Source: a virus
Lineage: Duplodnaviria > Caudoviricetes
Strand: one strand, 5' to 3'
Virus record (IMG/VR): IMGVR_UViG_3300049182_000044
Span: 32,001-96,000 of that record
DNA length: 64,000 nt
The position numbers and the translations under genes were made by a program. The notes beneath the pieces were generated by a model. The model searched no databases. It was not told where the DNA came from and worked only from the letters and a program-made list of their open reading frames with translations. Shown here piece after piece: positions 943-17,573 of this stretch; position 1 is the first letter of the stretch; every line of letters begins with the position of its first letter.

Positions 943-977
943 TCTCAGGTCGGAAAGCTGAATAAGCGATCTTAATG

Positions 978-1018: not shown

Positions 1019-1043
1019 GTATCTACACTCAATCGAGGCAAAC

Positions 1044-2006
1044 ATGGCAACGAAGAAAACCGCAGCAAAGAAACCCGCTGCAAAGAAGAAAGCTGCGGCG
1101 AAGAAGCCAGCAGCCAAGAAAACCACTGTGAAGAAAGTGGCGAAGAAGACCACAGCCAAGAAGACTGCGGCGAAGAAACCGGCAGTGAAGAAGGCCAAGC
1201 CTGCTGCAAAGAAAGCTGCACCGGCTAAGAAGAAGCGCAAGCTGAAGGGCGTTAACGATCTGAGCATCGTCAAACAACGTGCCAAGGGCAAGAAGAAAGG
1301 CGCAGCTGCAGTCAAAGCTCGTCTGAAGAACAAGCAATACCGCCTGAAGAACAAGGCGAAGATCAAGCAGAAAGCCAAGGTCCGCAAGGCCAAGATGACG
1401 GCGGCGGAAAAGGCTTTCAACAAGAAGCACAAGGAAGTCATCAAGAAGCATCACGCCAAGACCAAGGGCAAGATCGCTAAGCTGAAAGAAAACCACACCG
1501 CCAAGATCGCGAAGCTGAAAGCCAAGAAGCAGACGCCGAACGTCAAGGCAAAGATCCAGGCTACGAAGGCCAAGCACACCGAGAAGGTCACGGCGCTGAA
1601 GCAGGCTCACGAGAAGAAGAAAGAATCGCTCCTTTCCAAACTCGGCGGCCTGGCTAAGAAGGCTGTGAAGACCGGAACAAAGGCGGTCAAGAAGGCCCTG
1701 AACATGGGCAAGAAGACCAAGAAGGTCAAGATCGACAAAGGCTTCAAGAACGTCACTCCGAAACAAGGCGCTAAGGCGAACAAGGCTCGTAAGGCCAAGC
1801 TTGGCGCGAAGAAAGTTCCGACCGTGAAGAAACGTTCTGCAAAAGAACTTGAGTCGTTCGAGGGATCGCCGCGCAAGAAGTCCAAGATCTCAAAGATCGT
1901 TCCGAGCAAAAAGGGCTCTAAGAAGGTCACGAAGGTAGTCAAGAAAGCAGCGAAGAAAGTCTCGCTGAAGAAGGCTAAGAAGCCGGCCAAGAAGTCCAAG
2001 AAGTAA
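1044..2006 (+). CDS. Histone H1-like Lys/Ala-rich basic protein (paralog 2)
   Basis: Start at MATKK (GAGG RBS) rather than 975; KKPAAKK repeats; shares YR(L/M)KNK..K...TAAEKAF.KKHKE with paralog 1. Confidence 0.85.
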   Translation: MATKKTAAKKPAAKKKAAAKKPAAKKTTVKKVAKKTTAKKTAAKKPAVKKAKPAAKKAAPAKKKRKLKGVNDLSIVKQRAKGKKKGAAAVKARLKNKQYRLKNKAKIKQKAKVRKAKMTAAEKAFNKKHKEVIKKHHAKTKGKIAKLKENHTAKIAKLKAKKQTPNVKAKIQATKAKHTEKVTALKQAHEKKKESLLSKLGGLAKKAVKTGTKAVKKALNMGKKTKKVKIDKGFKNVTPKQGAKANKARKAKLGAKKVPTVKKRSAKELESFEGSPRKKSKISKIVPSKKGSKKVTKVVKKAAKKVSLKKAKKPAKKSKK

Positions 2007-2741: not shown

Positions 2742-4142
2742 ATGAAGGCGAAATCTGCATTAGACACGATGGAACGCATTCGCAAGGCTCGTAGCCTGAA
2801 CGACGTTGTATCCATCGTCCGCGACATTGCAAAGAACGTCGTTGCACAGCAAAAGAGTGTGACGAAAATGGGTGTATCCCTATCCGCCGGCAAGAAAATC
2901 AAAGACGAGACACTTGACATTGACCACACTGGCAAGAAGCCGGTTCGTGTGCGAGTCGGATCGAAGAAAAAGAAGGGTTCTGCACCTTTGAGTAGCGGAG
3001 CCAAGCTGGAGGGTTTCAAAGCTCCTCCTGCCGGACAAGTCAAAGAACACATGGAAGTCGTGCACCAGTTGCATGACAACGTAAAGCAACTGGAAGCCGC
3101 TCGTGCGCTGATCGAGCAGGCGTTTTCCCGTTCTGCGAAGAAGGATGTTGCCTTGAAGGGTATTGATGCCCTGATTAAGGACAGCACCAAGATCGTGAAC
3201 AACGCTTACGACATGATGGAAGAAATCTCGAAAAAGCACATTCCTGAAGAACTCGAAGAGATGAATCAATCTCTGTTCGACTTCTTGCTCGAGGCTGTTC
3301 CACAAGACAAGTACGCCAACATCATCCAGGGCACCTACGTGACTCTGCGTGAAACGGATTCCTCAGTTGCTCCTGCTGGCAAAGGTCCGAGTAAGCTGAA
3401 GATGAATACGGACTTCGTGTTCTCGTGCTACAACGTTCTCGAAAATCTGGAAGCCAGCGATGGCTACTTCTTCCCGAAATACGTACTGGTGCTGACCGGC
3501 GTGGTCGACCACCGTACCAAGGAAGGAAAGCCACATAGCGTCCTGCGTTACTTCCTGAATGCTTTGCCGGATTTCCGCGAGCCAGGAAAATACGATCTGG
3601 GCGCTGAAGTGCGGGACGAAGCGGACATGATGCATCGTGCGTCCCTCCTGCTTGCTCACAATTCCGTAGTCGTTCCGTTTGAACGTAAACCGATGCCACT
3701 CACCGATTCCGATGTGAAGACCAAAGGCTTCCACGGCATCCCGAACGTAGCTCGCGCTTATGTAGATGACGATCAACTGTGCGTCGTGGTCAAGAAGGGC
3801 AAGGCCAATACGGCTAACATTCAGAAGATTCAGACTGAAGTGATGTCTCTTCTGACTGCTGTCATCCGCACACCGAAGAAGGTCAAAGAAGCGGGGCCGA
3901 CGGGTAAGGGTGGTACTGTATTCAAATCCGCAGGTCGCGGCTCGGTCATTCTGCCGGCGCGTCCGGTGAAGGAAGGCGACAACACGGTTCTCAAGTTCTC
4001 GCTAATCCCTAACATCCCGGAAACCGATGCACAGCAGAAGTACACGGTCAATGTGGCTAAGCTGAAAGATCTGCAGGAGATGCTGGAACTGCCTGATGAC
4101 GTTATGTCCGAAGTCAAGAAGGCCTTGAAGCATCACATCTAA
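2742..4142 (+). CDS. Hypothetical protein, probable virion protein
   Basis: 466 aa ORF with phage-typical codons; KMGVSLSA motif at aa 42-49. Confidence 0.75.
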   Translation: MKAKSALDTMERIRKARSLNDVVSIVRDIAKNVVAQQKSVTKMGVSLSAGKKIKDETLDIDHTGKKPVRVRVGSKKKKGSAPLSSGAKLEGFKAPPAGQVKEHMEVVHQLHDNVKQLEAARALIEQAFSRSAKKDVALKGIDALIKDSTKIVNNAYDMMEEISKKHIPEELEEMNQSLFDFLLEAVPQDKYANIIQGTYVTLRETDSSVAPAGKGPSKLKMNTDFVFSCYNVLENLEASDGYFFPKYVLVLTGVVDHRTKEGKPHSVLRYFLNALPDFREPGKYDLGAEVRDEADMMHRASLLLAHNSVVVPFERKPMPLTDSDVKTKGFHGIPNVARAYVDDDQLCVVVKKGKANTANIQKIQTEVMSLLTAVIRTPKKVKEAGPTGKGGTVFKSAGRGSVILPARPVKEGDNTVLKFSLIPNIPETDAQQKYTVNVAKLKDLQEMLELPDDVMSEVKKALKHHI

Positions 4143-4154
4143 AGTTTGGCTGAG

Positions 4155-4204
4155 AATGCTCGATACTTCTGCGCTATCAAGTGTAAGCGGTATCGAGCAT
4201 TTTT
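4155..4204 (+). terminator. Terminator hairpin
   Basis: aatgctcgatac / gtatcgagcatt 12-bp stem then TTT. Confidence 0.7.
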
Positions 4205-4226
4205 ACCATGGGTCATGGAGTTCTAA

Positions 4227-5408
4227 ATGCAACATCGTCAACAGGTGGTGAACTTCCGAACGTCAGAGTTTCCTCTGTCGGGAGCATTTGCACCTTTCCT
4301 ACTCAAGCCGAGGATGACGTACATCAACATCGGTGACCTCTTTGAATATGTCGCTGATCTGCTCTGGCACACAACTGGCGTCTTGACCAATCGCGTTGAC
4401 TTCACACTCGTCAACGCTTTCTCGCCCTTCACCGGATTCTCATACGGCTCTCACCCCATCCCGCCTAAACTTGCTTGGCCGACTGGGAAGAGCCTTATCC
4501 TTACCTTTGCGATCAGTGCGATCGACCCGTACACTGAAACGACAGAGCTGAAACTGAATCAAACGGCACGGCTGAGCAACAAGCATACTCGCTGGAGCTA
4601 TAGAGACGGTGCGCAGGACTATGTTTCGATTTCGGTGGACACCACAGTCGGTGCAGAGCTTGGCATTCGCTACCCCAAATTCAATGAGCTGCAATACATC
4701 TACAACTTGATCGGTGCAATGTCGAAGTCTATGGTTCGCCGTCAGACGGTTTATCGCAGCCCGAACGAGTCGTATGAAGAGCTGCACGAAAGCTATTCTC
4801 TGGTGAATTTGCATTCGCGCATTTTCAACATGCCGATCAAGAACTTGTTCAATCAGATTCCGTACCACTTGTGGGTGTTCAATGGCAACCTCTGGCGTTT
4901 GGCACCTAATGTCATCCCCCAGCGTTTGATTACCCCTCAGGCAGCCCTGTACTTCTTCATGTATCTGAGCGATGTAACTCGCTTCTCGCGCTGTGTCGGC
5001 GACGTGACGATGAAACGTCTCGGTCTCGAACTTGGAACTACGGAAGAAGGCATCGTCGGTCTGCTGACCAAGAGCGTGCTGAATATGGTGCAAATGATTA
5101 AGACTCCGGGCGACCGTGATCTGTCTGATCTGGAATTGCTTGCACCAGCGGTCCTTCAGGCGCTCCTGATTACAGGCAGCTCGACGATCAAGACACGTTC
5201 CTCATATCGTGCAGATCTCATTGCAAGTACAAAGATGTTGATCGAGGACCTTCAGGCACGCGAGAACGATCTCGGGCACTTGTTTATGCCGCCACGCGAA
5301 ACAGCACGCAAACTCATTTTAGAGGATCGCAACTACATTCGGATGATCGAGAACGCAATGGTGTTCCCTCAGTCGGATTTAGATAGCGATCCAATGGAGG
5401 TATCATGA
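4227..5408 (+). CDS. Hypothetical protein
   Basis: 393 aa ORF, GGAG RBS, overlaps next gene (ATGA). Confidence 0.75.
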   Translation: MQHRQQVVNFRTSEFPLSGAFAPFLLKPRMTYINIGDLFEYVADLLWHTTGVLTNRVDFTLVNAFSPFTGFSYGSHPIPPKLAWPTGKSLILTFAISAIDPYTETTELKLNQTARLSNKHTRWSYRDGAQDYVSISVDTTVGAELGIRYPKFNELQYIYNLIGAMSKSMVRRQTVYRSPNESYEELHESYSLVNLHSRIFNMPIKNLFNQIPYHLWVFNGNLWRLAPNVIPQRLITPQAALYFFMYLSDVTRFSRCVGDVTMKRLGLELGTTEEGIVGLLTKSVLNMVQMIKTPGDRDLSDLELLAPAVLQALLITGSSTIKTRSSYRADLIASTKMLIEDLQARENDLGHLFMPPRETARKLILEDRNYIRMIENAMVFPQSDLDSDPMEVS

Positions 5409-6550
5409 TTCACTATGCGATTGACGGAGCCGTACTTGCGGTGACGCAGAAGTTCATTGACGAGGACTCGGAACAGCCTTTGCTTGCCGCTCCTGGGTAT
5501 CCTCAAGTCAAACTGATTGATGCGGAAAAGAATCGCCTGAGTTCTACTATCGGTAGCCCGACCGCTATCCCAGGTGAATGGAGTGCCAATATCTCTATTC
5601 CGAATCTGGGAGTTGCTGACAAGACTGAGCTACGTTTGATCTGGCGTTTTCTCACCACCGATAACGAGCGCATTGTCGAGAAGGATGTGGTGGTTGTCGA
5701 GCCGCGTGTGGAGTCTCGCGTTTCGGATATCGTTGCGGTGTTCGGTGATCAGAAATTCGCACTGACGTTGCCCGTGTACTTCGGTGGCACAGATACGGCT
5801 GAGTATTATCTGTATCGTGACAACGATATGATTCTGAGTGCCCCAGGTAACCTGGCTGACACCGCGCTCTATCAACGCACTACAACGGTTGACCGTACCA
5901 ATTTCCTACTTCCTCTGAATGTGCCGAATCCTTCGCTTCAAGCCTATCTGGTACGTGTCGATGTGGTGCCATGTGGCGTCGGTCACAAGAAGACGTTCAC
6001 GTACAAGTTGTGGGCGGTGACTCCTCAAATCATGAAGGGCATGTCCTTCTTGGAGGACTTCCTGAATAAGGCAAAAATCGAGAACACGATCCCCGAATTG
6101 CAGTACACGGATGGCGACTTGATTAACTATCTCGAACGCGGTCTGAATCTGTTCAACATGGTAGGCTCTATGCCCACCGCCTTCACCGGCACGAACATGC
6201 AGGGTGTGCTGTTTGATGCATGGGTGACCTGTGCTTCGTACTATGCGCTGGGCGCTCAATTGATGGCTGAGGGCGCATTGGCATTCGATTTCAGTGGTCA
6301 AGGTATTTCGCTGAACGTTGATCGTACCCCGCAGCTTGACTCTGCGCTGGGGCGTATTGAGAGCATGATCGACAGCCGCATCGTCCCGCTCAAGAAAGCT
6401 CTGCAAACTCAGGGCGTTACCAGTGGTGACGGTTCTGTGGGTAAGACCACAATGCGTAATTCAGCTAATCTCGGAACACTCGGACTGACGAATGCTGCGA
6501 CAACTCGTATCCGCGGTGTGCAGAACACCTTCGTCGGCAAGAGGTGGTGA
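5405..6550 (+). CDS. Hypothetical protein, possible head/neck structural protein
   Basis: 381 aa ORF; beta-rich N-terminus and helical C-terminus; function inferred from context only. Confidence 0.6.
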   Translation: MIHYAIDGAVLAVTQKFIDEDSEQPLLAAPGYPQVKLIDAEKNRLSSTIGSPTAIPGEWSANISIPNLGVADKTELRLIWRFLTTDNERIVEKDVVVVEPRVESRVSDIVAVFGDQKFALTLPVYFGGTDTAEYYLYRDNDMILSAPGNLADTALYQRTTTVDRTNFLLPLNVPNPSLQAYLVRVDVVPCGVGHKKTFTYKLWAVTPQIMKGMSFLEDFLNKAKIENTIPELQYTDGDLINYLERGLNLFNMVGSMPTAFTGTNMQGVLFDAWVTCASYYALGAQLMAEGALAFDFSGQGISLNVDRTPQLDSALGRIESMIDSRIVPLKKALQTQGVTSGDGSVGKTTMRNSANLGTLGLTNAATTRIRGVQNTFVGKRW

Positions 6551-6783
6551 TGAGTTCTCTTTGGGAAAGTCCTTCGATTGTCCCAGCGTTATACAAACAG
6601 TTTGGCTGGAAGAAGTCCAGTCAGACTGAAAAGAGTTACAGCATTACAGAGCGTACAGATGGACAGTACGAAGTGAATGTAGACATATTTAGAAGCTTAG
6701 GTGGCTGTCTTGTTGAGGCTGGCCATCAGCATAAAGTATGCCGCAGTTTGACTGAAGCTCAGTCCTATTTAAAACGTTTATGA
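6550..6783 (+). CDS. Hypothetical protein
   Basis: ATG overlapping upstream TGA; 77 aa. Confidence 0.55.
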   Translation: MSSLWESPSIVPALYKQFGWKKSSQTEKSYSITERTDGQYEVNVDIFRSLGGCLVEAGHQHKVCRSLTEAQSYLKRL

Positions 6784-6790
6784 GGCTAAC

Positions 6791-8092
6791 ATGCCATTAG
6801 TTTATGTCCCCCGCAAAAAGAAGCTCGCTCAGATCATTCAAGAGCTATTCGTTAATGCGTCCTCTGTAGGAGCTTTCGGTACTGCGCTGAATGTGCCAGT
6901 CCCGTCAGGCGTGCAGAACGGCGACCTGCTGATTATGTGTATCACAGCAGCCTCTGCCTATACCGACCCGGTCGGCTGGACGCTGGTGTCAGCCTACACC
7001 TGGTCCTATGGATATCATAGCCGGATCTACAAGCGTACAGCCAGCAACGAGCCTGCAGCTTATTCGGTGGTTCCCTCTCAGACTGAGAGCCTCGGAACGA
7101 TCATGGCGTACCGTGGGAAGACAGAGGTGGACGTCGTAGGAACATGGAGTGAGGGCTTGCAGAACTTGGCTATGTCGAGTATAACTACTACGGTGCCAGA
7201 CACGATCCTCATTTCCTATGCTGCAGATCGTTCGCCAACTAGCCCTTCAGCCCCTGCTGGAATGACCTCCCGCGCAGCCTATGCAGGAACATATCTGGGT
7301 TTCCGCGCATCCGATCAAACTCTCGGTGCCGCTGGAGCAACCGGAACACGAAGTGCGGTCGGAGGCACTCAATACAACAGCGCAGGCATCTTGTTTGCGT
7401 TGAGGGGCGGTTTCGACCCATACTGGAATAAGGTAGTCGCGTTGCTGCATCTGGACGGCGCTAACGGCTCCTCGGTGTACACAGACTCGTCGTCACTTGC
7501 TAAGTCCTATAGTTCTCTTGGATCGACGCTGCTGCTCTCAACTACTCAAAAGAAATTTGGCGCTTCCAGTTTACGTACTGCTAATTCAGGAGCTATAGCT
7601 ACCTCTAACCGGGACGGCGCTTTCGATTTCGGCACGGAAGACTTCACGATTGAATTCCAGCATTTCTACGTCCCTGGTGAAGCTGCATCTTATGGTACAT
7701 TCTTCGATATCGGTAGTCAGAAGCTGTCAGTTCAGTTCGGAAATGACACCTCTAAGATGCTCTTCTACGCTTCCGGCGGAGGCGTAACTGGACTGTCGGA
7801 CGGCGTAGGTGTCGCACACGGAATGGTAGCGAATACATGGAATCACGTGGCTGCAGTTCGGCATGGCTCAAACGCATATTTGCTCATTAACGGCGTGAAG
7901 CAGGTCATTTCCACTAACGTATCAGGGTCTATCATTGGTTCCACTGCCTCCAGTACAGTGGCGGCTATCGGCAATTACAGTGGTGGCCAAACATATTCAC
8001 CTGGCGGCTATATGGACGAAGTTCGAGTTACGAAGGGCGTCGCTCGTTACACTGCAGATTTCTCGGTCCCGTCAGCTGCTTTCACTGCGTAA
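6791..8092 (+). CDS. LamG/concanavalin A-like lectin-domain virion protein (tail or adhesion)
   Basis: C-terminal DPYWNKVVALLHLDG...FGTEDFTIEF...WNHVAAVR...GYMDEVRVTKGVARYTADFSVP, typical of phage Laminin_G_3 proteins. Confidence 0.8.
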   Translation: MPLVYVPRKKKLAQIIQELFVNASSVGAFGTALNVPVPSGVQNGDLLIMCITAASAYTDPVGWTLVSAYTWSYGYHSRIYKRTASNEPAAYSVVPSQTESLGTIMAYRGKTEVDVVGTWSEGLQNLAMSSITTTVPDTILISYAADRSPTSPSAPAGMTSRAAYAGTYLGFRASDQTLGAAGATGTRSAVGGTQYNSAGILFALRGGFDPYWNKVVALLHLDGANGSSVYTDSSSLAKSYSSLGSTLLLSTTQKKFGASSLRTANSGAIATSNRDGAFDFGTEDFTIEFQHFYVPGEAASYGTFFDIGSQKLSVQFGNDTSKMLFYASGGGVTGLSDGVGVAHGMVANTWNHVAAVRHGSNAYLLINGVKQVISTNVSGSIIGSTASSTVAAIGNYSGGQTYSPGGYMDEVRVTKGVARYTADFSVPSAAFTA

Positions 8093-8196
8093 TAGTTGCA
8101 GAACCAAGCAAAACATCGTAATTTTCATGCATAGGAAAGCGCATCCTATTAAACATCCTATGCATAGTAAACTCAATCCTTATAAGGAGCAAGAAA

Positions 8197-9069
8197 ATGA
8201 AGAATTCCCGTTCGCAAGGCACGATGCGTGCTGTTATTGCTGGCGCACGTACCGGTGAGCCAGTTGTTGAAGTCAAGAGCTACGCACTGGCTGGTGCGGG
8301 TATGGCTCGCGTCCTCGTGGAAGTGACCCACACGGAAGAATCTCGCAAGGACCCGTCCGTGATCGCATCCGCAATCCGCGCCCGTCTCGACAACAAGATG
8401 GAAGCTGTTGCAGGCTCCTTCACCACCGTCGAGAAAGGCTCCTTCGTTGAACGCATCACCGGCATCGTTTCGACGATTCGCAAGGCGATTCCGGTCACCG
8501 AAGAGAACATGAAGGGCTTCCGTGCTACGGCTGCCAATATGTTCATGGACGAAGAGAAGGAAATGTGGGCACTCCACAAGACCCAAGCAGGCCAGATTCT
8601 GGTCCAGACCACCGGCATCGGCGACGATATGTCCCTGGTCAATCTGCTTGATTCCTGCTCCAGCGCTGGCTTCCGCAACAGCCCTGACTACGGCCGTCTG
8701 AGCGCCATGGCTTCGGCTACCGCTACTCAAGTTCAAGGTGGCGATTTCGTCTCCTACGTGAACTTCGACAACTCGATCGGCCTGGGCTTTGTCGTGGCTA
8801 CCGCTGCTGACACCGACGACATTCTGGTACTGCCGCACGGCGCCGAAGAAGCAGAAGCAATCAAGCGCGCTGCTGTCACCCAGATCCATGCACAAGACGA
8901 GTTCCCGGCTCACGAGCTGACCTCGGAAGAGCAAGTCGAGCAAGTCGTGGCATCGGCACGTGGCGTGTCGGTTGAAGACCTCCTGTCGTTCTACAAGAAG
9001 GTGTTCGCACGTAACGCCAAGTTCTATGACCTGTTTGCCGCCCGCGTCCGTAGCCATCAGTTCATGTAA
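8197..9069 (+). CDS. Hypothetical protein, probable abundant structural protein
   Basis: 290 aa, AAGGAG RBS, strongly biased codons, own terminator. Confidence 0.75.
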   Translation: MKNSRSQGTMRAVIAGARTGEPVVEVKSYALAGAGMARVLVEVTHTEESRKDPSVIASAIRARLDNKMEAVAGSFTTVEKGSFVERITGIVSTIRKAIPVTEENMKGFRATAANMFMDEEKEMWALHKTQAGQILVQTTGIGDDMSLVNLLDSCSSAGFRNSPDYGRLSAMASATATQVQGGDFVSYVNFDNSIGLGFVVATAADTDDILVLPHGAEEAEAIKRAAVTQIHAQDEFPAHELTSEEQVEQVVASARGVSVEDLLSFYKKVFARNAKFYDLFAARVRSHQFM

Positions 9070-9088
9070 TCGGCAAGTGCAATAAATC

Positions 9089-9117
9089 GAGTGGCCGGGA
9101 AACCGGCCATTCCTTTT
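9089..9117 (+). terminator. Terminator with GAAA tetraloop
   Basis: gagtggccgg-gaaa-ccggccattc then TTTT. Confidence 0.8.
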
Positions 9118-9148
9118 ATGGAGCATTGAAAACATTCGGAATTTTAAC

Positions 9149-9871
9149 ATGGCCAAGATCCTTATTTCTCTTTCAGCTGCGGCTGACCCTAGCTGGAAGA
9201 AAAGCAAATGGTTTCCTAAGAAGGTCCCTAGTGGTGAATCTGCAACTAAGCTTGCCTACGATAATATGCTGAAGGAAGCTCTGCAATCGTTTCCGGCACC
9301 TATTATTAAGCTTCTTCAAACTCAGGGCGTACACGTCGGTGGTAATTCCGTGTTCGACGCAATTCCTGATTTCATGTATGATTTTGAAGAGGCGGCTGCA
9401 GACTGGTTGTTTGAGGTATCGCTCGAAAACTTCTACAAAAACATTACTACGACTGGCAAGTTCTTCACAAAGTTGCACACGCAACTCTCCAAGTGCATGA
9501 AGACCTGGGCGGCTTACAATAAGTTGAATATCGACAGTAAGTATCCCGAATACTCTGCAGCAGTTAAGAAGATCAAGATGCCAGTTATTTCCATATCTTC
9601 TGACAACTCGCTAGCACCAAAAACTATTTCGTATGAGCCGGAGCTTGGAGCATCTTACGTGCAGATGTTTGCTAACGGTAAGCTGGCGGAACAGTTTGGT
9701 TTTGATTCCAGGGCAGCAAATTCTGCAGATCTTGCAGTAGCTAATGCTTTCTTGCTTCTCGTATCGCGAACCGAAAGAGGATATTTTCAACTGTTCACCG
9801 ACACATGGCGTTTCAAGAGCACACTTGCGGCGCCAAAGCCTGCGTCGAAAAAAGACTATACAAACTTTTAG
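9149..9871 (+). CDS. Hypothetical protein with KILISLSA N-terminal motif
   Basis: 240 aa ORF. Confidence 0.7.
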   Translation: MAKILISLSAAADPSWKKSKWFPKKVPSGESATKLAYDNMLKEALQSFPAPIIKLLQTQGVHVGGNSVFDAIPDFMYDFEEAAADWLFEVSLENFYKNITTTGKFFTKLHTQLSKCMKTWAAYNKLNIDSKYPEYSAAVKKIKMPVISISSDNSLAPKTISYEPELGASYVQMFANGKLAEQFGFDSRAANSADLAVANAFLLLVSRTERGYFQLFTDTWRFKSTLAAPKPASKKDYTNF

Positions 9872-9882
9872 AGAGCTTGATA

Positions 9883-10029
9883 ATGAAAACCGCTCTTTTG
9901 ATGGTAACGTGGCAGAAGCACTTCATCGAAGCCGTGTTTGGCCCGTATGTCGCAATGACAGAGGCCATGATGTCTATCGTGATGAAAAACGCGATTTCCC
10001 GCACGGCGCAATTGCTCAAACCTACGTGA
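9883..10029 (+). CDS. Small hypothetical protein
   Basis: 48 aa ORF from ATG after GAGAG; fills the gap between genes. Confidence 0.35.
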   Translation: MKTALLMVTWQKHFIEAVFGPYVAMTEAMMSIVMKNAISRTAQLLKPT

Positions 10030-10175
10030 TTCTGCGTCGTACCTGAACCCCTGTGCGTCGTTTGACAGATCGTGAACTTTGTGATATACTGGAATCGTGA
10101 AGGAGCTCTGCACCGCGTCGTTCAGGACCTTCAGGTTTGCGAAATTCACCAACCATCAAATTCAGGGAGTTCATC

Positions 10176-10799
10176 ATGGCACGCAAAGCACAACCGAAGA
10201 GCAGCAATAAGCGCTACTTCATCGTTGATGATCTGGCTAAGGTCATCCACTACGGCCCGTTCAACAGCTTTAAAGAAGGCGGTGCAGAATGGGACAGGCT
10301 TGAGGCCGAGTGGGTTGCTGCAAACCCCAGGCCCAAGCGTAAAAATCTGCCTCACGCATATCCGCTGTGCTTGGTTCCCGAACATGACCTCGACAAAGAG
10401 TTCAAGTTCGCTAAGGGCGTGAAGCGCGTGAAGCTGCGTCTGCCGATTCATTTGACCACGAAGTCCGGCTTCAACGTGATGCAGTACGGGGCCGAGGTTG
10501 AAGTCGATTTCGCCAGCATGGACTACGTTGGTCGCATCGACTACACGGACCTCGAAAAGGTGTTCGACCTGCGCAAAGGCGTTCCTGTCAGGCTGTTTGA
10601 TTCGACGCGCTTGTTCATGCGCGGTACACCTGAGAAGATTCTCCCGGCGTTGCAGACGATGTTGAACAATACGCCGAAAACATTTACCGCGCTGAGCAAG
10701 CTGAACTTCACTAGAAACTTCGTGAAAGCGCTTTTCACTTACGTCGGCGATTTGCAGGCAGCGATCAATGCTGTTCAGCAGTACGTCGATAGCGAATAA
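10176..10799 (+). CDS. Hypothetical protein
   Basis: Start MARKAQ after GGGAG RBS; 207 aa. Confidence 0.75.
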   Translation: MARKAQPKSSNKRYFIVDDLAKVIHYGPFNSFKEGGAEWDRLEAEWVAANPRPKRKNLPHAYPLCLVPEHDLDKEFKFAKGVKRVKLRLPIHLTTKSGFNVMQYGAEVEVDFASMDYVGRIDYTDLEKVFDLRKGVPVRLFDSTRLFMRGTPEKILPALQTMLNNTPKTFTALSKLNFTRNFVKALFTYVGDLQAAINAVQQYVDSE

Positions 10800-10807
10800 T
10801 AGAAGTA

Positions 10808-10825
10808 AATACTGTAAAAAGACGG
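10808..10825 (+). promoter_or_regulatory. Putative phage promoter element (TGTAAA family)
   Basis: aatactgtaaaaagacgg, identical 18-mer at 36891-36908; both copies intergenic. Confidence 0.55.
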
Positions 10826-10884
10826 TGCAAACGCACTGTTTCACCCCGTTTTCCACAACAAACCTTTCATAGAAAGACCATACC

Positions 10885-11679
10885 GTGAACGCTAAAGTCA
10901 TCGTTTCCCTGTCCGCTTCCAGCAACAACTTCCTGAACAACGACAATCATCTGAACGTCGCCAAGGTTCAGGAACTGAATGGCAAGATCAAGGAAGCTCT
11001 CAAGGAACTCCCGACCGTCAATGAAAAAGGCAAGGCAATCAAGCCGCCGAAGCCGCTCACCACTTACACGATCAAGCGTAAGGCCAAGATCGTCAAGTTC
11101 GACAGCGCGCTCAACAACGCTGGCAACCTGACATACCTGGCACGTCGCGCAATCCCGGTTAAGGAATGCAAGCGCCTGACCGAACGCGGTGCAGTTCGCA
11201 ACCTCGACATCCTGACCGTGTACGACAAGGAAGTCATCGGCGACAAGCTGTACAAGCAGTGCAAGGAAGCAATGGCGGCAATGAAGACCCACATGGGCCG
11301 TGCCGACAAGACCAAGGAATCGGTCAAGAAGGAAAAGCTGGTCATTCGTGATGCCAATAACAAGGAATTCGCTCGTGGCGTCGCTGCATTCAAGAAATTC
11401 CTGAAGGCAGCAGGCGTTGACCTGGGCAAGGACCTCGTTGAATCGTCCGGCGGCATGGGTGGCAAGGCTGTGCTGTTCCGCCTCGACAAAGAGACGGTTG
11501 TCAGCATCGGTCGTTCCGACACCTCGAAGTTCAAGGCTGCAAAGAAGGCAGCTGAAGAAGCGGGCGACGAAGGCGACGACGAAGATGTGAAGCCGGCCAA
11601 GAACGTCAAGAAGGTCAAGAAAGACGGCGACAAGAAGAAGGTCAAGAAGAACGGCCTGAAGAAGAAGTCCAAGAAGTAA
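10885..11679 (+). CDS. Lys-rich hypothetical protein with KVIVSLSA N-terminal motif
   Basis: 264 aa; acidic then highly basic C-terminal tail. Confidence 0.8.
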   Translation: MNAKVIVSLSASSNNFLNNDNHLNVAKVQELNGKIKEALKELPTVNEKGKAIKPPKPLTTYTIKRKAKIVKFDSALNNAGNLTYLARRAIPVKECKRLTERGAVRNLDILTVYDKEVIGDKLYKQCKEAMAAMKTHMGRADKTKESVKKEKLVIRDANNKEFARGVAAFKKFLKAAGVDLGKDLVESSGGMGGKAVLFRLDKETVVSIGRSDTSKFKAAKKAAEEAGDEGDDEDVKPAKNVKKVKKDGDKKKVKKNGLKKKSKK

Positions 11680-11695
11680 TAACTGATAGCCGGCG

Positions 11696-11723
11696 AGGGA
11701 ACGTGTTCATTCACGTTCCCTTT
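11696..11723 (+). terminator. Terminator hairpin
   Basis: agggaacgtg / cacgttccct 10-bp stem then TT. Confidence 0.7.
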
Positions 11724-11742
11724 CCTGCGTTATGGAGCAATC

Positions 11743-12021
11743 ATGTCTAAGATTCAGATTAGCATCGGTAGTGTAGGGCGCATCAAGAATGCAAAAATCC
11801 GCATACCTATCGGTCGCGATTTCTCTTCGATCTTCAAACGTGTGCAGAACCAAGCTGCGATCATGCAGAATGCTGGCGCACAGATGAAGGAAGACCTTGT
11901 TACGTTGACCAAAGCCGCCACGCCTCAGGCGATGACTTCCGAGGAAGTTGATAATTTATTGGCATCGTTGGATGAGGTCGAGAAGTATCTTAAGCTTGCT
12001 CGTTCCAAAGTCAAACAATAA
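11743..12021 (+). CDS. Hypothetical protein (KIQISIGS N-terminus)
   Basis: 92 aa, GGAG RBS. Confidence 0.7.
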   Translation: MSKIQISIGSVGRIKNAKIRIPIGRDFSSIFKRVQNQAAIMQNAGAQMKEDLVTLTKAATPQAMTSEEVDNLLASLDEVEKYLKLARSKVKQ

Positions 12022-12041
12022 CCCACTAATTGGAGTAGCTC

Positions 12042-12719
12042 ATGACTAAGAAAGCTAAAGTAATCGTCGCAAAGACCAAACCCGCAGCCACAAAGAAAGC
12101 AAAGGTGTTGATCGCAACTTCGGCTGCCAAGAAAGCACCTAAGCCTGCAACCAATGCACAGCACGGAACCTTGATGGGCGTGTATGCCGACCTGGAACAG
12201 ATTCATGAAGAGCTCGAGGACAGCCTCGACAACGTGTCTGATCTGATGGACGAAGTTGAGGCATTGAAAGAAGGCACCTTCACTACTGAAGGCGCTAAGG
12301 CTTTCATCGCCAAGCTGAAAGATGCAATGAAGACCGTGAAGCCTATGATCTCGGCATCGCGCAACCTCGAAAAGGCCCTTATCAAGGCACGTGACGTTGG
12401 CACGAAGAGCGAGATCAAGCCCACTGAAACTGGAGGCGATGCAAACGTCCCGGTGGGTGACGACAGTGACAAAGCCTCGCCTCAAGGCGACATATACACT
12501 GTATACTCCACACTCGGCAACGATGACATTAACTCGATCGTTCGCGCCAAGTCGAAGGCCGAGGCGAAGAAAAAAGCAAAAGATCTGGTCGCGGGCACCG
12601 TGCAATCTGTGATGAAAATGGCTGAGCATGAGATCGAAGGCCAAGGCATTACTGCGAAGCACATTGCACGTATGGACAGCAAAGGCTTTTACGAGTATCG
12701 ACGCGACGGTGGCATTTAA
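12042..12719 (+). CDS. Hypothetical protein (KVIVA / KVLIATSA N-terminus)
   Basis: 225 aa, GGAG RBS. Confidence 0.75.
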   Translation: MTKKAKVIVAKTKPAATKKAKVLIATSAAKKAPKPATNAQHGTLMGVYADLEQIHEELEDSLDNVSDLMDEVEALKEGTFTTEGAKAFIAKLKDAMKTVKPMISASRNLEKALIKARDVGTKSEIKPTETGGDANVPVGDDSDKASPQGDIYTVYSTLGNDDINSIVRAKSKAEAKKKAKDLVAGTVQSVMKMAEHEIEGQGITAKHIARMDSKGFYEYRRDGGI

Positions 12720-12734
12720 ACAGCTGAGGCCTAT

Positions 12735-13163
12735 ATGACCAAGAAGATCAAAATCATGGTGTCGCAATCGAAGTCGAAATTCGGCACCGCTTGGGCTGTC
12801 ATTCGTGACCCCAGCAATGGCAAGTACCTTATCTGTCGCCGTGGCCCTACTGCTAACAACGCGGGTCAGTGGGGCTTCCCTGGTGGCGGAGTGGATGAAG
12901 GTGAGATGCACATCGAGGCCTGCGCTCGTGAAACCTGGGAAGAAATTCAGGTCCGGCTCGCTGTGAAGAACTTTCATGCTGTCGCGCATAGCCCTGACTC
13001 TGCGGTCATCTGGTTCGAGGTATTCAAGCTCGTTCAGCCAAAGGCTACGGAAGAAGTCGATCAGTTCAAGTGGGTACACCCGTATGACCTATACAAGTAC
13101 ACCTTGCACAAGAGCATCAAGGACTATTTCAAGGCACTTCGCTTAGGTGCAAAGACTCTCTAA
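12735..13163 (+). CDS. NUDIX hydrolase
   Basis: Nudix box GQWGFPGGGVDEGEMHIEACARETWEEIQV. Confidence 0.9.
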   Translation: MTKKIKIMVSQSKSKFGTAWAVIRDPSNGKYLICRRGPTANNAGQWGFPGGGVDEGEMHIEACARETWEEIQVRLAVKNFHAVAHSPDSAVIWFEVFKLVQPKATEEVDQFKWVHPYDLYKYTLHKSIKDYFKALRLGAKTL

Positions 13164-13172
13164 GGAAGCATC

Positions 13173-13982
13173 ATGCGAAAACTTTCTCAAGCAGACTACG
13201 AGGCAAAGCTGAAAACGATAGTTCCTACTATCGAATGTCTCGGTCTCTACAAGTCGTCTGCTAAGAAGGTCAAGCACGCCTGTACCGTTTGTGGCTACTG
13301 CTGGGATGTGGTTCCGTCCTCATTCCTGCATCGTGGTTACGGCTGTCCAAAGTGCAACGGTACAGGTGGCAATGGTGGTATGCAAGAGGGCATTTACGTT
13401 GACCGTTTGTTTGAAGTCAACCCAAACATCCTGTTCATCGGCCCTTTTGTGTCAACTGACAGGGACGCTTTGCATAACTGCTTGCAGTGCGGTGAAGACT
13501 TCGAGATACTTCCTGCAAACGCTTTACGTGGTCGCGGGTGTTCGTCATGTTCTACTGAAAACCGTTCTGCATTTGGCAATGCATGGAAGACTCACGAAAG
13601 CACAGGTATGCGAGTACAAGGATTTGAGACCTTTGCACTCGACTATTTGAAAAAGAGCTTGCACGATTTCAGGCACTACACCTTCAAAATAAGCGAAGGC
13701 AAGCCTGTCATCCAGTATGTCGAGAATGGGAAAACTCGCAAATACTTTCCTGACTTCTATCGCCCCTTTAGCAGGACGGTTATCGAAGTGAAATCAACGT
13801 ACACCTTCTTAGGCACGAAAGAGATGTTTCAAAACATCAGTGCCAAAAGGCAAGCCTGCGTAACACAAGGATACAAATTCAAGCTGTTGCTTATGAGTCG
13901 CACTGGTAGGCGCTTGAAGGTGCCGATCAATTGGTGGCTCATGCCTTACGAGGAATTACACGCAAAGGTTTATCATGCTTAA
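13173..13982 (+). CDS. Zinc-ribbon / PD-(D/E)xK endonuclease, homing-endonuclease-like
   Basis: Two CxxC...CxxC repeats then YFPDFY...IEVKSTYT nuclease motif. Confidence 0.7.
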   Translation: MRKLSQADYEAKLKTIVPTIECLGLYKSSAKKVKHACTVCGYCWDVVPSSFLHRGYGCPKCNGTGGNGGMQEGIYVDRLFEVNPNILFIGPFVSTDRDALHNCLQCGEDFEILPANALRGRGCSSCSTENRSAFGNAWKTHESTGMRVQGFETFALDYLKKSLHDFRHYTFKISEGKPVIQYVENGKTRKYFPDFYRPFSRTVIEVKSTYTFLGTKEMFQNISAKRQACVTQGYKFKLLLMSRTGRRLKVPINWWLMPYEELHAKVYHA

Positions 13983-14607
13983 GAAGAAAGACTCCTCAGG
14001 GCTTGGGAAGAAAAAGAAAGTCAGCACCGAAATGGTGGTGGTTGATTCTAGCAAGCCTGTAGAAAAGAAGAAAAAGAAACTGAAGGCACATTCGCCTAAA
14101 GCAATCGAAAAGGCAAAGAACAAGTTGGTTGCGAAAGAGGCAGAAATCGAGCAAGAGCTTCAAACGCTGGAAATTCCAAAAGGTCGGACGCCGGATGAAC
14201 GCCGAATGCTTGAAGAGTATTCGCGCATGCTGTACATGAACTCCCAACTGATTAAGCGGATGAAAAAGAAGCTTAAGGAGAACTTGAACAGCAAGGACAT
14301 CTATGCGTTGTCAACTCTCATGAGTCAGCAGCGCGAAGTGATTGCCGATATTCGTTCCGTGTCTGATATGTCAGGTCAGGTTGCGACGTTGGAAGCGAAT
14401 ATGTTGCAACCCATGGTGCGTAGCATCGGCCAGAACATGCTCGATTCGTTCTACCAATTGCGCAAGCTTATTATCGAGACCTCGAAGCCGAACGAAACGC
14501 AATTCGCATTACAGAAGCTGGACGAGATCACCAAAGAGCAGGGCAAGTTCCTGCACATGCAGTACGGTGATGCGGTCGGCAAGATCAGTCAAATCATGAT
14601 GGGATAA
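13975..14607 (+). CDS. Hypothetical helical protein with basic N-terminus
   Basis: 210 aa ORF. Confidence 0.7.
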   Translation: MLKKKDSSGLGKKKKVSTEMVVVDSSKPVEKKKKKLKAHSPKAIEKAKNKLVAKEAEIEQELQTLEIPKGRTPDERRMLEEYSRMLYMNSQLIKRMKKKLKENLNSKDIYALSTLMSQQREVIADIRSVSDMSGQVATLEANMLQPMVRSIGQNMLDSFYQLRKLIIETSKPNETQFALQKLDEITKEQGKFLHMQYGDAVGKISQIMMG

Positions 14608-14610
14608 ATC

Positions 14611-14973
14611 ATGGCTAAACTTCATGTAGCACTTGCATCACAGCCCGAGCACAAATTCACGGGCTCGATCAAACTTCCCGGTATGACTCCTTTCTATTTC
14701 AATACAAAGGCCGTATCGGACAAGCAGGCAAAGAACAATGGCGTGGCTCAATTCGCCCGCAAGTTGAATATGTCAGTGGCGAACTTGCAGCGTCACATGA
14801 AGGACTATAAGCCGAAGATTGACATTTCGATGACTGAAGAGGCAAAGCCACCGAAAGAGGCTAAGCCCAAGCAACCCAAGCCTACGAAGGTCAAGATCGA
14901 TCACGAAGAAGCTCCAAAGGCTCCTATAATCGTAGCACCGAAGAAAGACAACCCGCAAGGCTCTTTATTCTAA
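14611..14973 (+). CDS. Hypothetical protein (KLHVALAS N-terminus)
   Basis: 120 aa ORF, Lys/Pro-rich tail. Confidence 0.7.
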   Translation: MAKLHVALASQPEHKFTGSIKLPGMTPFYFNTKAVSDKQAKNNGVAQFARKLNMSVANLQRHMKDYKPKIDISMTEEAKPPKEAKPKQPKPTKVKIDHEEAPKAPIIVAPKKDNPQGSLF

Positions 14974-14985
14974 CTGGAAGACATC

Positions 14986-16275
14986 ATGAAAGTTCAAATC
15001 AGCCTCTCGGCCACCTCCTTTGAAAAGGGTGACCGCATCATTGCCAAGATCGCTAAAAACGAATGGCACACTGGAACCGTAACACGCGCTGGGGCTAAAC
15101 TTGGTTTGAAATTCGATGACGGCGCAACTGCGACTGTCGATCCCGAAGACTTTAAACTGGTCAAGAAGTTGACTACCGATAAGGTCTCGAAGAAACCTTT
15201 GACCGACGTTCAGGCAAAGCCATTGTTCGCCAAGGTAAAGAAAGAAAAGGCGACAAAGGATCCGAAGCCGGGTAAGAAGGTAAAGGTCGATGTGTCGGCT
15301 CTCCCCAGCGAGAAGCAGCAGAAGACTACGACCGTCGATCTCGACGCTCCGAACTACGATGACTGGATCAGCAAGTTCACCAAAGAGAAGGCTCAGAAGC
15401 AAATCGAAAAGCTGAAAGCCAAGATCGAAAAGATCAATGCAGCGGGGATGCGTGGTGCTCGCAAGTACGAAGACGCAGGTCCTATGGACCTCGCTTGGGA
15501 GAAGGCACAGCCTCTGCAAAACCAAGTAGACTTGCTTGAGTTCTGGCTGAAGAATCCGAAGAAGCAACCGCCGAAGGAAATGATTGCTGCATTCAACGAG
15601 CACCAAAGCCGTGAGCAGCGTAGTAAGCAATTCAAAGCACAACGCAAAGAGGCTGCTAGCAAGTTCCCTAGCTTGATTGGCAAGACCATCCAGTTCCAGA
15701 GCAAACGTGGGCTAATCGAAGCAGTCGTTATCAAGCAGTTGCCTGGTAAGTGGAGCGACAAGCCGCGTTACAAAGCACAGGAAGAAGGCAGGGGCACATG
15801 GACTGTGTCTCATGATCTGGTGCTGAAGGTGATTGACAAGGGCACGAATGCCAACTTGAAGAAGATCAACGAAGCTGCGGACAACAAGAAGGCATTGGCT
15901 AAACTGCTCAAAGAGAGCATCGGCGGTGAGATCACTTGGACCTCGTCCCGCCTGAACAAATCGGTGAAGGGTAGACTTACAGCAGTCGGACCTTCCAAGG
16001 TCAAAGCTACTGCGTTGGACAGTGGCGGTGATTGGAAGATTCCGCTCAACTTAATTACCCACGTAGGCGGCCAGCCGCTCGATAAGGGCATTGCAGGCTT
16101 GAAGCCGGCTAAGCCGTTGGTGGAGTCTGGACTGTTCATGGTTTATGACCGTCAAGGCAAACCGTTGATGAATAAGCCGGGTACGAAAGCAGAAGCGGAA
16201 AAGGCTTCTATGGAATACCTGAAGAACAACATGCGTCCGGGTGTCATGACTATGACGCGACCAGTCTACAAGTAA
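14986..16275 (+). CDS. Lys-rich hypothetical protein (KVQISLSA N-terminus) with repeated small SH3/KOW-like beta modules
   Basis: 429 aa; recurring G..I...G.V....K/W.V pattern suggests 3-4 small barrels (inference). Confidence 0.7.
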   Translation: MKVQISLSATSFEKGDRIIAKIAKNEWHTGTVTRAGAKLGLKFDDGATATVDPEDFKLVKKLTTDKVSKKPLTDVQAKPLFAKVKKEKATKDPKPGKKVKVDVSALPSEKQQKTTTVDLDAPNYDDWISKFTKEKAQKQIEKLKAKIEKINAAGMRGARKYEDAGPMDLAWEKAQPLQNQVDLLEFWLKNPKKQPPKEMIAAFNEHQSREQRSKQFKAQRKEAASKFPSLIGKTIQFQSKRGLIEAVVIKQLPGKWSDKPRYKAQEEGRGTWTVSHDLVLKVIDKGTNANLKKINEAADNKKALAKLLKESIGGEITWTSSRLNKSVKGRLTAVGPSKVKATALDSGGDWKIPLNLITHVGGQPLDKGIAGLKPAKPLVESGLFMVYDRQGKPLMNKPGTKAEAEKASMEYLKNNMRPGVMTMTRPVYK

Positions 16276-16279
16276 TATC

Positions 16280-16588
16280 ATGGCACGTTTTCGTCCTGTA
16301 GGCCCGAAGCGTCCGTCAGTCGTTGCAAAGATCAGGCGCACAAAGACTCAGGCCTATGGGACGAAAGACCAGTGGGCTGTAATGTCAGCGGCATGTATTG
16401 CACGAGACGGGCATCGCTGTAAGCAATGCGGCAACCCGTCTCGTCCCGGCAATAGACTGAACGCGCATCACATTATCCCAGTTGCAAAGGGTGGCAAAAC
16501 CGTTCTCTACAATCTCAAAACACTGTGCGAAACGTGTCACTCGAAACAACCCGGGCATGGGCACATGCTTCGCAGACATAGACACTGA
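16280..16588 (+). CDS. HNH endonuclease (small, McrA/gp74-like)
   Basis: RDGHRCKQCG...AHHIIPVAKGG....NLKTLCETCHSK. Confidence 0.9.
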   Translation: MARFRPVGPKRPSVVAKIRRTKTQAYGTKDQWAVMSAACIARDGHRCKQCGNPSRPGNRLNAHHIIPVAKGGKTVLYNLKTLCETCHSKQPGHGHMLRRHRH

Positions 16589-16721
16589 AAGGCATCACCA
16601 TGGCTGTACCCAAGACACTTAACTCATGACGACGTATGGGCTCCCTCGAAAGACGGAGCCTGTCCTCGTTTATGCGCCAATAAATATAATTTAAAGTATC
16701 GAACCACTAAGAGGATTCCTT

Positions 16722-17573
16722 ATGGATGCCCAGGCAATCACAGGGCGTATGTTGACCTCGCTGAGTGCAGACAAGCACACTATGATCCGGCATTACTTGT
16801 TAGCCTTCGGGATCACTAATGCCGGCAGCGATAAACTTCCGCCCGTATTCAAAGAGAAGCACCAGCCAGAATGGGAAGCGTTCACACGCGAGTTTGAGCT
16901 GAGCGTTCCTCGTGCAACGAAAGAGAAGATCGCCCTGTACCGCGTACTGGAGTTTGTGCGCTACATGAAACATATGGGCATCAACCCATTCCAAGGAGCG
17001 TTTAAGCATCCTGCTGAAGCGAAGATTGCTAGCAAGGGTGTCGATCCGGTCAAGGTGTACGAGAAGCTGCTTGAATCGAGTATGTTCGACGTTGCGCGGT
17101 CGATTTCGAGACTGGCTCACAAGACGCATTTGCTTTTGCAGATGAAGATCGCGAAGTCAGTGTCAGATGTGAAGGCGAAGAACGGGCAGTATGTTCTTAC
17201 AACAGCGTTCATTCTTAAACCTCAACGCAAAGATGACACTTTGGACGGGGTCTTGACAAACATGCGTGGTCTGTTGTATAATGACAGTAAAGTGCCAGTT
17301 CAACTCACTGAGCGCAAGCAAGCCCTGCCAAAGACCTCCCGCGCAAAACCCAAGATTCAAAATAGCAAAGCTGAAGTGCTGCTCCGAAGCGAATCCTTCA
17401 TGGGATGGTATCCGCTGTCCAAGAACGATCACTTCGTTGCGTACTTGATCCGCGCACGGGAAGACCTGCTTGTGTTCAAAGTCAAAGTGGCACTTGATGT
17501 AGACGTAAACCTAGGCTCTTCTACCAAGCAGACAATCATGCGTCTTTGGACGAAGGCGTTTAAATCAATTTAA
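16722..17573 (+). CDS. Hypothetical protein (RMLTSLSA motif near N-terminus)
   Basis: 283 aa, GAGG RBS. Confidence 0.7.
   Translation: MDAQAITGRMLTSLSADKHTMIRHYLLAFGITNAGSDKLPPVFKEKHQPEWEAFTREFELSVPRATKEKIALYRVLEFVRYMKHMGINPFQGAFKHPAEAKIASKGVDPVKVYEKLLESSMFDVARSISRLAHKTHLLLQMKIAKSVSDVKAKNGQYVLTTAFILKPQRKDDTLDGVLTNMRGLLYNDSKVPVQLTERKQALPKTSRAKPKIQNSKAEVLLRSESFMGWYPLSKNDHFVAYLIRAREDLLVFKVKVALDVDVNLGSSTKQTIMRLWTKAFKSI

Follow-up and report, generated by a model that had tools for sequence, protein, structure and literature searches.

Why should proteins that otherwise have little in common begin with the same handful of residues? This question is raised by a 64,000-nucleotide stretch of a phage genome (hereafter the window; bases 32001-96000 of IMG/VR record IMGVR_UViG_3300049182_000044), where a sequence-only reading had noticed K-h-x-h-S-L-S-A (h or Phi, hydrophobic) at the N-termini of dissimilar proteins and had proposed that this peptide sorts cargo into the head. 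Here, we find that the peptide, called the tag below, recurs throughout the genome and its relatives, and we would give an even chance to its being a capsid-targeting (head-loading) address, that is, an analogue without sequence similarity of the capsid-targeting sequence (CTS) of T4. The genome itself is complete (virus record rated 100% complete) and measures 281,566 bp at 51% G+C, and its closest named relatives are Pseudomonas phage PaBG, phage NCTB, and Pseudomonas phage Lu11, with the Erwinia and Dickeya phages Y3, Yoloswag, Alexandra, and AD1 being more distant. PaBG and Lu11 belong to the 'Lupandier' group of jumbo myophages (PMC7412058), of which the phage is, by protein comparison, a new and uncultivated member, because its protein identities to these relatives are only 30-55%. 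Neither a megablast of the region nor a tblastn of the 429-aa tagged protein (14986) against phage records gave a match, and the relatives were reached solely via searches with the ligase, protease, and helicase. For comparison, two IMG/VR and six metagenomic contigs were picked by their protease (55-80% identical) from 223 homologs. We found no description of this N-terminal tag in the published literature.

All nine strings quoted in the sequence-only reading are present in the sequence, six of them at the extreme N-terminus and three further in (Table 1). The six extreme copies are located 1-3 residues past a start codon, and a Shine-Dalgarno-like motif precedes every one of these starts. 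Five window proteins begin with M-(x)-K-h-x-h-[SA]-L-[SA]-[AS], and the NUDIX hydrolase begins with a degenerate copy. Inclusion of the NUDIX enzyme in the tagged set, as had been suggested, is borne out by clearly tagged NUDIX genes in two relatives, these being L036 (MKINIAIA) and Erwinia phage Y3 (MMLNVSLSAK), and the IMVSQS variant of the window enzyme also heads a type IB topoisomerase (TopIB) in relative L038. Four further window proteins hold an S-L-S-A/N-type core internally, 9-49 residues in. For one of these, the protein encoded at 12042, the string had been listed with no mention of its depth; it is there, but 20 residues in and behind a weaker KKAKVIVAKT at aa 3-12, and the protein also gives a weak Mrr_cat_2 match. 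In the 283-aa protein encoded at 16722, an internal ATG at codon 10 would yield an MLTSLSA start, and at the place of the internal copy in the 466-aa protein encoded at 2742 the NCTB ortholog has KLLQGLSS and the PaBG ortholog lacks the segment. A case additional to the earlier list is the SNF2-type helicase with RAQTSLSN at aa 27-34, whose RAQTSLSNTSFE is nearly identical to MKVQISLSATSFE of the 429-aa protein. The small N-terminal beta domain of the latter recurs with the tag in relatives L032 and L036, though a protein atlas look-up of the full 429 residues gave nothing usable. According to Pfam and PHROGs, all tagged window proteins except the NUDIX enzyme are orphans.

The motif is real in the range first claimed for it, but that range was too narrow, as a second and larger cluster of twelve consecutive tagged genes lies outside the window on the minus strand (genome 191.4-203.0 kb). 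Searching all six frames of the whole genome with a loose pattern and then a scoring matrix gave the consensus M-K-[ILV]-x-[IV]-[SA]-L-[SA]-[SA], with Lys at position 2 in 18 of 19 tags, and about 24 tag bearers among roughly 330 genes, these being clustered. Every one of the 16 matches of at least 17 bits in long open reading frames (ORFs) is located 1-3 residues past the start codon. As a guard against circularity, we trained a second matrix solely on seven window strings from the sequence-only reading, which for the rest of the genome returned seven matches of at least 14 bits, six of them new N-terminal cases at 1-2 residues past a start (ORFs of 154-672 aa); with the reversed genome as a control, the same matrix returned a single match that was not at a start. 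The motif search beyond the window, which had been put forward as a check, thus extends the set, and the tag occurs far above chance.

We then considered what kind of entity the tag is. Once it was cut away (the first 15 residues, or 50 for proteins with internal copies), all-against-all BLASTP left just two links, one between the TopIB proteins (23% identity) and one between a pair of small paralogs (B10 with B11), so that the bearers are otherwise dissimilar, as originally noted. Pfam likewise puts them in differing families (Topoisom_I twice, DNA_ligase_aden with OB and BRCT, Acb1, and NUDIX), and a paralogous family with a common N-terminal domain is ruled out, since homology ends with the tag and the Pfam families differ. 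Among the copies, both the Ser codons (TCT, TCC, TCA, TCG, AGC, and AGT) and the Leu codons (CTT, CTG, CTC, and CTA) vary; because S-L-S-A is encoded differently from copy to copy, selection acts on the peptide rather than on DNA or RNA, and a nucleic acid-level element over the start codons is ruled out. A Sec, Tat, or lipoprotein signal peptide is ruled out as well, as the tag alternates polar and hydrophobic residues and has no hydrophobic run, Cys, or RR. The residues that follow it are polar or charged.

The boundary between tag and domain is best seen in the Acb1-like protein, where position 1 of the Pfam Acb1 profile falls on residue 13, and where residue 25 is the partner of residue 13 in an alignment with T4 Acb1, a protein of solved structure. 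In the AlphaFold2 model of this protein (mean predicted local distance difference test score, pLDDT, of 89), only residues 1-7 fall below 50 and the fold begins near residue 15; the tag is thus modelled as a disordered extension. All eight close Acb1 orthologs, at 45-55% identity, have a tagged start (MKIQISLA, MKIQVSLC, MKLAISLS, MRINISVS, and others), with an indel-rich linker of variable length between it and the domain, and all four distant orthologs lack it. Similarly, the TopIB has about 25-36 extra N-terminal residues relative to the solved bacterial and poxvirus enzymes, and the NUDIX domain (Pfam PF00293, E 3e-16, residues 19-130) begins at about residues 15-19. The tag is a short peptide placed before unrelated folded domains, and the shared N-terminal code first proposed for unrelated proteins is therein upheld. 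As a separate observation, the genome has a second LigT/Acb1-like gene that is untagged, as are its orthologs in L034 and L035, and the phage hence carries one tagged and one untagged 2H-phosphoesterase.

These data bear on the view that the bearers share no partner at all, with the tag being either a favoured protein start that aids expression or stability and was propagated as gene starts recombined, or a sequon for Ser modification by a phage enzyme. A/T-rich starts of the MK-Ile-x-Ile kind are frequent in genes of high expression, which would suit a favoured start, but expression offers no rationale for the S-L-S-A half, which is retained with differing codons, and the tagged genes are few and clustered. 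A sequon might find its enzyme in the GT2 glycosyltransferase that PaBG, Y3, Lu11, and NCTB encode within their head modules, but a search of this genome gave no homolog of the PaBG enzyme, nor did Pfam show a glycosyltransferase in the loci of the eight metagenomic relatives, and we rejected this enzyme as the tag reader. Moreover, the tag persists in orthologs whose bodies are only 45-55% identical. A tag with no common partner is, in our estimation, very improbable.

Among the relatives, the tag is kept across the clade. In the eight metagenomic ones, 22 of the 170 ORFs within 10 kb of the protease are tagged versus 1.06 expected, this being a count of Phi-x-Phi-[SAT]-[ILMV]-[SAG] in the first few residues, with the expectation taken from the rate of the pattern inside those same proteins. 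Orthologous ligases (MSKIQVSLST, MKLLISLAS, MTKIMISLSA, and MKMLVSLSA) and TopIB proteins (MKVIISLG, MKVYLNSLSA, MKFLVSMS, MKILLSVA, MTISKLIMVSQSA, and MSKVMVSLS) carry it, and other cargo varies by genome, including two DRAT-like proteins, the NUDIX protein, and a DUF5856 protein in L036 and a GNAT protein in L039; the DUF5856 family is absent from the genome under study. The head module of NCTB has tags of its own (MKIISISA, MKIVSISA, MLISLSA, MLKLNLLSISA, and others). NCTB also shares the framework of the window cluster but is without most of its small tagged genes, and the cluster is therefore a lineage-specific expansion. Tags are further found in Lu11 (MIISLAAA, MFISIAW, and MKVYLAIAAS) and in Y3 (MKILISLSA, MKIFISLSA, MEIFVSLSK, MIVFISLSQ, and MEMLISLSH, besides that of its NUDIX protein). 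In PaBG, the tag is diverged and ends in Glu (MKINVPLSSAE, MQLLIAMASAE, MQIKVAMYSAE, MAAIKINLAE, and MLIKINLLE), and its TopoI carries MHTSLSA.

The tag is also enriched beside head genes. The larger cluster ends at the prohead protease, directly upstream of it, with a zinc-finger endonuclease-like insert (L001:2316-3365) as the sole separator. Downstream of the protease are tail-fibre-like genes, the gene for a conserved scaffold-like protein of 673 aa (genome 182597-184618), which relatives' annotations call an 'ATPase', that for a virion protein of 229 aa, the HK97-type major capsid gene, and genes for the sheath and tube. Among PHROGs, the protease falls in phrog_18299 ('head maturation protease', E 1.5e-87); it shares 52% identity with the PaBG enzyme, and its sequence has no match in Pfam or the PDB. 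Superposition of its AlphaFold2 model (pLDDT 87) with T4 gp21 (PDB ID: 5JBL) gave a Z of 10.1 and a root-mean-square deviation of 3.1 Å for 139 residues, with the next match at Z 5.7 and herpesvirus proteases near Z 5, and the enzyme is accordingly predicted to have the T4 gp21 fold. The association with the head claimed earlier is substantiated by this linkage of a tag cluster to head-assembly genes and to a prohead protease of modelled gp21 fold.

A link to the virion itself comes from PaBG, whose virion proteome was determined from 14 gel bands by matrix-assisted laser desorption/ionisation (MALDI) mass spectrometry (PMC7412058). We matched the listed masses to ORFs, and gene numbers were confirmed in the GenBank file in the supplement of that paper. 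Band 1 is gp202 (221 kDa), the ortholog of the window helicase, with LNSLSAA at aa 7-13 (LESLSAG in the NCTB ortholog), which suggests that particles of this phage group carry the giant SNF2-type helicase. Band 9 corresponds to gp83, which has MLIKINLLEA as its start and whose gene adjoins a scaffold-like gene and that of the MHTSLSA topoisomerase. Band 8 corresponds to gp191, a protein present in more than one gel band (several in all), and its counterpart in the window is the basic protein at 975-2006, which may be an internal DNA-binding head protein. For Y3, Lu11, and the Dickeya phages, a search gave no open-access virion proteome that could be matched to their tagged genes, and the Lu11 and Y3 records hold no flags for proteins found by mass spectrometry. 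In PaBG, several virion proteins are proteolytically processed, with the capsid protein losing about 20% of its mass (PMC7412058). A loss of this size fits a conserved S-[SA]-E found at about residue 75 in our capsid protein alignment. As a further observation on the major capsid protein, the block A-L-S-[SA]-(S)-x-G-E-[FIL]-N-A at residues 31-42 is kept in all six capsid proteins compared and resembles the ALSS form of the tag; on sequence conservation, both this block and S-[SA]-E are candidate maturation sites.

How a head-loading address might operate can be sketched as follows. M-(x)-K-Phi-x-Phi-[S/A]-[L/I]-[S/A]-[A/S] would act as a portable address tag, in which a short amphipathic, strand-like segment is borne on a flexible linker. 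Late in infection, it would dock its bearer on a prohead component, this possibly being the scaffold-like core protein, the inner face of the HK97-fold capsid, or the portal, whereupon the cargo would be enclosed together with the DNA and then delivered into the next cell. The protease may trim the tag or a nearby downstream site in the manner of T4 gp21, which is the least supported of these steps. The putative cargo comprises an NAD-dependent DNA ligase, two TopIB proteins, an Acb1 cyclic-nucleotide phosphodiesterase (an anti-CBASS enzyme), a NUDIX hydrolase, a possible acetyltransferase, a possible ADP-ribosyltransferase (ART), the SNF2 helicase, and many orphans, and would make up a pre-loaded toolkit of DNA repair, topology, and anti-defence functions for the first minute of infection.

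Several findings weigh against a head-loading address. For one, we infer the presence of cargo in the heads of this phage from its sequence and from PaBG, and the PaBG proteome is shallow (14 gel bands only), its tag is a diverged form, and a search of this genome for a homolog of gp83 detected none. For another, the window cluster also adjoins replication genes, and the clearest tagged genes of Y3 (Y3_205, 206, 208, 231, and 240), annotated as hypothetical only, are found among those for SbcC, Pol III, primase, and exonuclease, though T4 internal-protein genes are likewise outside the T4 head cluster. The ligase and topoisomerase could instead be late replication or repair enzymes that share another partner.

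Such a partner might be a sliding clamp or replisome, a dedicated chaperone, or the scaffold of a replication factory. The number of DNA enzymes among the bearers (the ligase, two TopIB proteins, and the SNF2 helicase) and the surroundings of the Y3 genes suit this explanation, as do an SNase-family protein in relative L034 (itself untagged), the loose resemblance of KVQISLSA to the bacterial clamp-binding motif QL[S/D]LF, and the group's having a clamp of its own, annotated as such in Lu11 and as a Pol III beta subunit in PaBG. However, neither the DNA polymerase nor any other replication gene of this genome had a tag scoring 12 bits or more in the matrix scan. A Gln at the matching third position occurs in only 4 of 19 tags and has no aromatic residue after it, so QL[S/D]LF was rejected as a description of the tag, and a strict position just after Met is foreign to clamp-binding motifs. 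Moreover, clamp binding would serve no purpose for the Acb1, NUDIX, acetyltransferase-like, and ART-like bearers or for the many small orphans, and any partner other than the capsid must be reconciled with tag clusters that are enriched beside the protease and capsid genes and with the PaBG helicase and gp83 being in virions. We therefore regard docking on a non-capsid partner as unlikely.

A last point on the opposing side concerns Glu, which is at position 10 in just 3 of 19 tags and otherwise first appears, irregularly, 12-30 residues in; its occurrence after the tag is not enriched beyond chance in this genome. Because cutting by a gp21-type protease should take place after Glu, cleavage of the tag is not supported by the sequence, and co-folding the protease (84-row alignment) with residues 1-45 of a tagged protein (L001:3779-4375) gave a score of 0.01, which is no evidence either way. 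The same irregularity bears on the proposal that the tag is mainly a recognition or cleavage signal for a protease (of gp21 fold or another), and so a propeptide for inactivity or timed processing instead of packaging. This proposal would account for the protease gene adjoining the tag cluster, for the S-L-S-A/N core lying 5-49 residues inside four window proteins and the helicase orthologs much as propeptide cleavage sites do, and for the processing of PaBG virion proteins, and the PaBG variants, in ending with L-A-E, L-L-E, or S-A-E and then Ala or Asp, fit the cleavage rule of T4 and phiKZ. Even so, a disordered N-terminus of eight residues would hardly inhibit so many different folds, and the prohead protease works inside the prohead, so its substrates must enter anyway. 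A role mainly in proteolysis is, in our judgement, distinctly unlikely.

Considered as a head-loading address, the tag can be set beside known systems. The internal proteins of T4 need no more than their first 10 residues to be taken into the head (prohead core), and gp21 removes these residues; Alt is a packaged ADP-ribosyltransferase from which gp21 removes propeptides at both ends (PMC9026906). Common to both phages are a peptide of roughly 10 residues at the extreme N-terminus of otherwise unrelated proteins, a prohead protease of gp21 fold (here modelled), putative cargo for host takeover or anti-defence (in T4, the ADP-ribosyltransferase Alt and the anti-restriction IPI), and cargo sets that vary among related phages. 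In contrast, MKTYQEFIAE and MKIKISLSA have no sequence similarity, with only Met-Lys in common, and the T4 sequence ends in a gp21 site (L/I-x-E), whereas the present tag is without a regular Glu. The putative cargo is also more numerous here, at about 24, including a 674-aa ligase and a 1924-aa helicase, and packaging, sufficiency, and cleavage were shown by experiment in T4, while the system described here is known from sequence. The tag has a CTS-like logic, with a new sequence and lineage and an unusually rich putative enzymatic cargo.

Encapsulin cargo-loading peptides are short motifs (e.g. SLGIGSLK) by which cargo attaches to the interior surface of an HK97-fold shell. Like the tag, they are short and extended, with alternating hydrophobics, a Ser-Leu core, and a flexible linker, and are joined to diverse enzymes, the container (a putative one for the tag) being made of HK97-fold protein; unlike the tag, they are usually C-terminal and belong to cellular nanocompartments, and binding of the tag to the capsid is putative. 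Also comparable are the jumbo myophages phiKZ, 201phi2-1, and SPN3US, which have a distant gp21-type protease and in which many head-internal proteins enter the cell and N-terminal propeptides are cut at short motifs; their head and ejection proteins are processed, with S/A/G-x-E as the prohead protease motif (PMC7411985, PMC10052503). Nonetheless, these propeptides are long and dissimilar and have in common a 3-residue cleavage site, with no common 8-residue tag reported, and the present phage is in another group, that of PaBG and Lu11. The Dar antirestriction proteins of P1 are packaged via N-terminal signals (PMC9024508, PMC12810830), and are similar in being anti-defence proteins loaded in step with head morphogenesis, but their incorporation is protein-specific and hierarchical, as opposed to one short consensus tag on many proteins.

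Table 1. Tagged proteins and other features of the window and of the rest of the genome (window coordinates unless marked genome; the second cluster is that at genome 191.4-203.0 kb).
Feature	Coordinates	Strand	Length (aa)	Tag or core	Remark
Lys/Ala/Pro-rich, histone-like basic protein	975..2006	+		untagged	positional counterpart of PaBG_00191 (gp191)
A9	2742..4142	+	466	KMGVSLSA, aa 42-49 (nt 2865-2888)	
LamG/ConA-like lectin domain protein	6791-8092		433		PF13385, E 4e-11
Antisense ORF	8173-9207	-			
A1, tagged orphan	9149..9871	+	240	MAKILISLSA (start)	no Pfam or PHROG family
Promoter-like element	10811 (genome 42811)			ACTGTAAA	74 nt upstream of A2
A2, tagged orphan	10885..11679	+	264	NAKVIVSLSA (start)	GTG start
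A3, tagged orphan	11743..12021	+	92	MSKIQISIGS (start)	
Antisense ORF	11925-13079	-			
A4	12042..12719	+	225	KVLIATSA, aa 21-28 (nt 12102-12125)	
A5, NUDIX hydrolase	12735..13163	+	142	MTKKIKIMVSQS	degenerate tag
Homing-endonuclease-like gene	13173-13982				
A6, tagged orphan	14611..14973	+	120	MAKLHVALAS (start)	
A7, tagged	14986..16275	+	429	MKVQISLSA (start)	MKVQISLSATSFE
Homing-endonuclease-like gene	16280-16588				
A8	16722..17573	+	283	RMLTSLSA, aa 9-16 (nt 16746-16769)	
SNF2-type helicase	18058..23832	+	1924	RAQTSLSNTSFE, aa 27-38 (nt 18136-18171)	Pfam SNF2-rel_dom and Helicase_C
Promoter-like element	24295 (genome 56295)			CTGTAAAT	
Major capsid protein	genome 180686-181804				outside window
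LigT/Acb1-like	genome 184798-185355			untagged	L002, outside window
Tagged protein	directly after major capsid gene			MKLKISLSV	thirteenth tagged protein outside window
Tagged protein	second cluster	-	132	MKSKIRISLAG	
Tagged protein	second cluster	-	198	MKIKISLSA	weak PHROG match, possible acetyltransferase
TopIB-like	second cluster	-	559	MKLNIALAA	
NAD-dependent DNA ligase	second cluster	-	674	(GTG)AKIMISLSS	
Acb1	second cluster	-	161	(GTG)KIQISLSA	
Tagged protein	second cluster	-	155	MKIKVSLSA	
TopIB	second cluster	-	320	MKIQIALSK	
Tagged protein	second cluster	-	184	MKIKISLSS	
Tagged protein	second cluster	-	378	MKIKVALAS	weak ART-like atlas lead (scores up to 0.85, TM about 0.33)
Tagged protein	second cluster	-	165	MKIKIPLFS	
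Tagged protein	second cluster	-	182	MKLKIALSS	
Tagged protein	second cluster	-	81	MKLRIALSG	

Further features of the locus can be noted. The window cluster sits between the basic protein and the giant helicase, and two homing-endonuclease-like genes are inserted among its tagged members, one with a treble-clef zinc finger, DUF7487 and TnsA-like parts, and a match to phrog_559, and the other a small HNH gene. The former is resembled by the zinc-finger insert beside the protease. Between conserved structural-looking genes, there is a protein with a LamG/ConA-like lectin domain at its C-terminal end. Two long antisense ORFs overlap plus-strand genes and beat the real ones in a naive longest-ORF call, but are most likely spurious. 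Finally, the Lu11 annotation has elements called 'putative middle/late promoter', whose core is matched by ACTGTAAA and CTGTAAAT, with 17 occurrences of CTGTAAAT in the genome under study, and copies of the promoter-like element precede the tagged 264-aa protein, the tagged ligase (genome 197461), and DNA polymerase I.

More broadly, it is a tentative and rather doubtful proposition that the whole PaBG/Lu11/NCTB/Y3 clade, together with many uncultivated relatives, uses one encapsulin-like cargo-loading code in the form of an 8-residue beta-strand, by which a swappable kit (ligase, TopIB, SNF2 helicase, Acb1, NUDIX, and ADP-ribosyltransferases) would enter the cell along with the injected genome and be active ahead of any phage gene expression. 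The head-loading reading itself is directly testable in the cultured relatives PaBG, Lu11, and Y3. If it is true, the tag would be the first consensus head-loading signal defined for this large and mostly uncultivated group of jumbo phages, and the cargo list could be read straight from a genome sequence. Such a phage would inject enzymes of repair, topology, and anti-defence (ligase, TopIB, Acb1, NUDIX, and an ART-like protein) with its DNA, in parallel with the enzyme-loaded virions of poxviruses and giant viruses, and the tag would offer a handle of 8-10 residues for packaging foreign proteins into large capsids. Should the partner be another one, the tag would still mark a recognition system that is new to description and connects some two dozen proteins in each genome.

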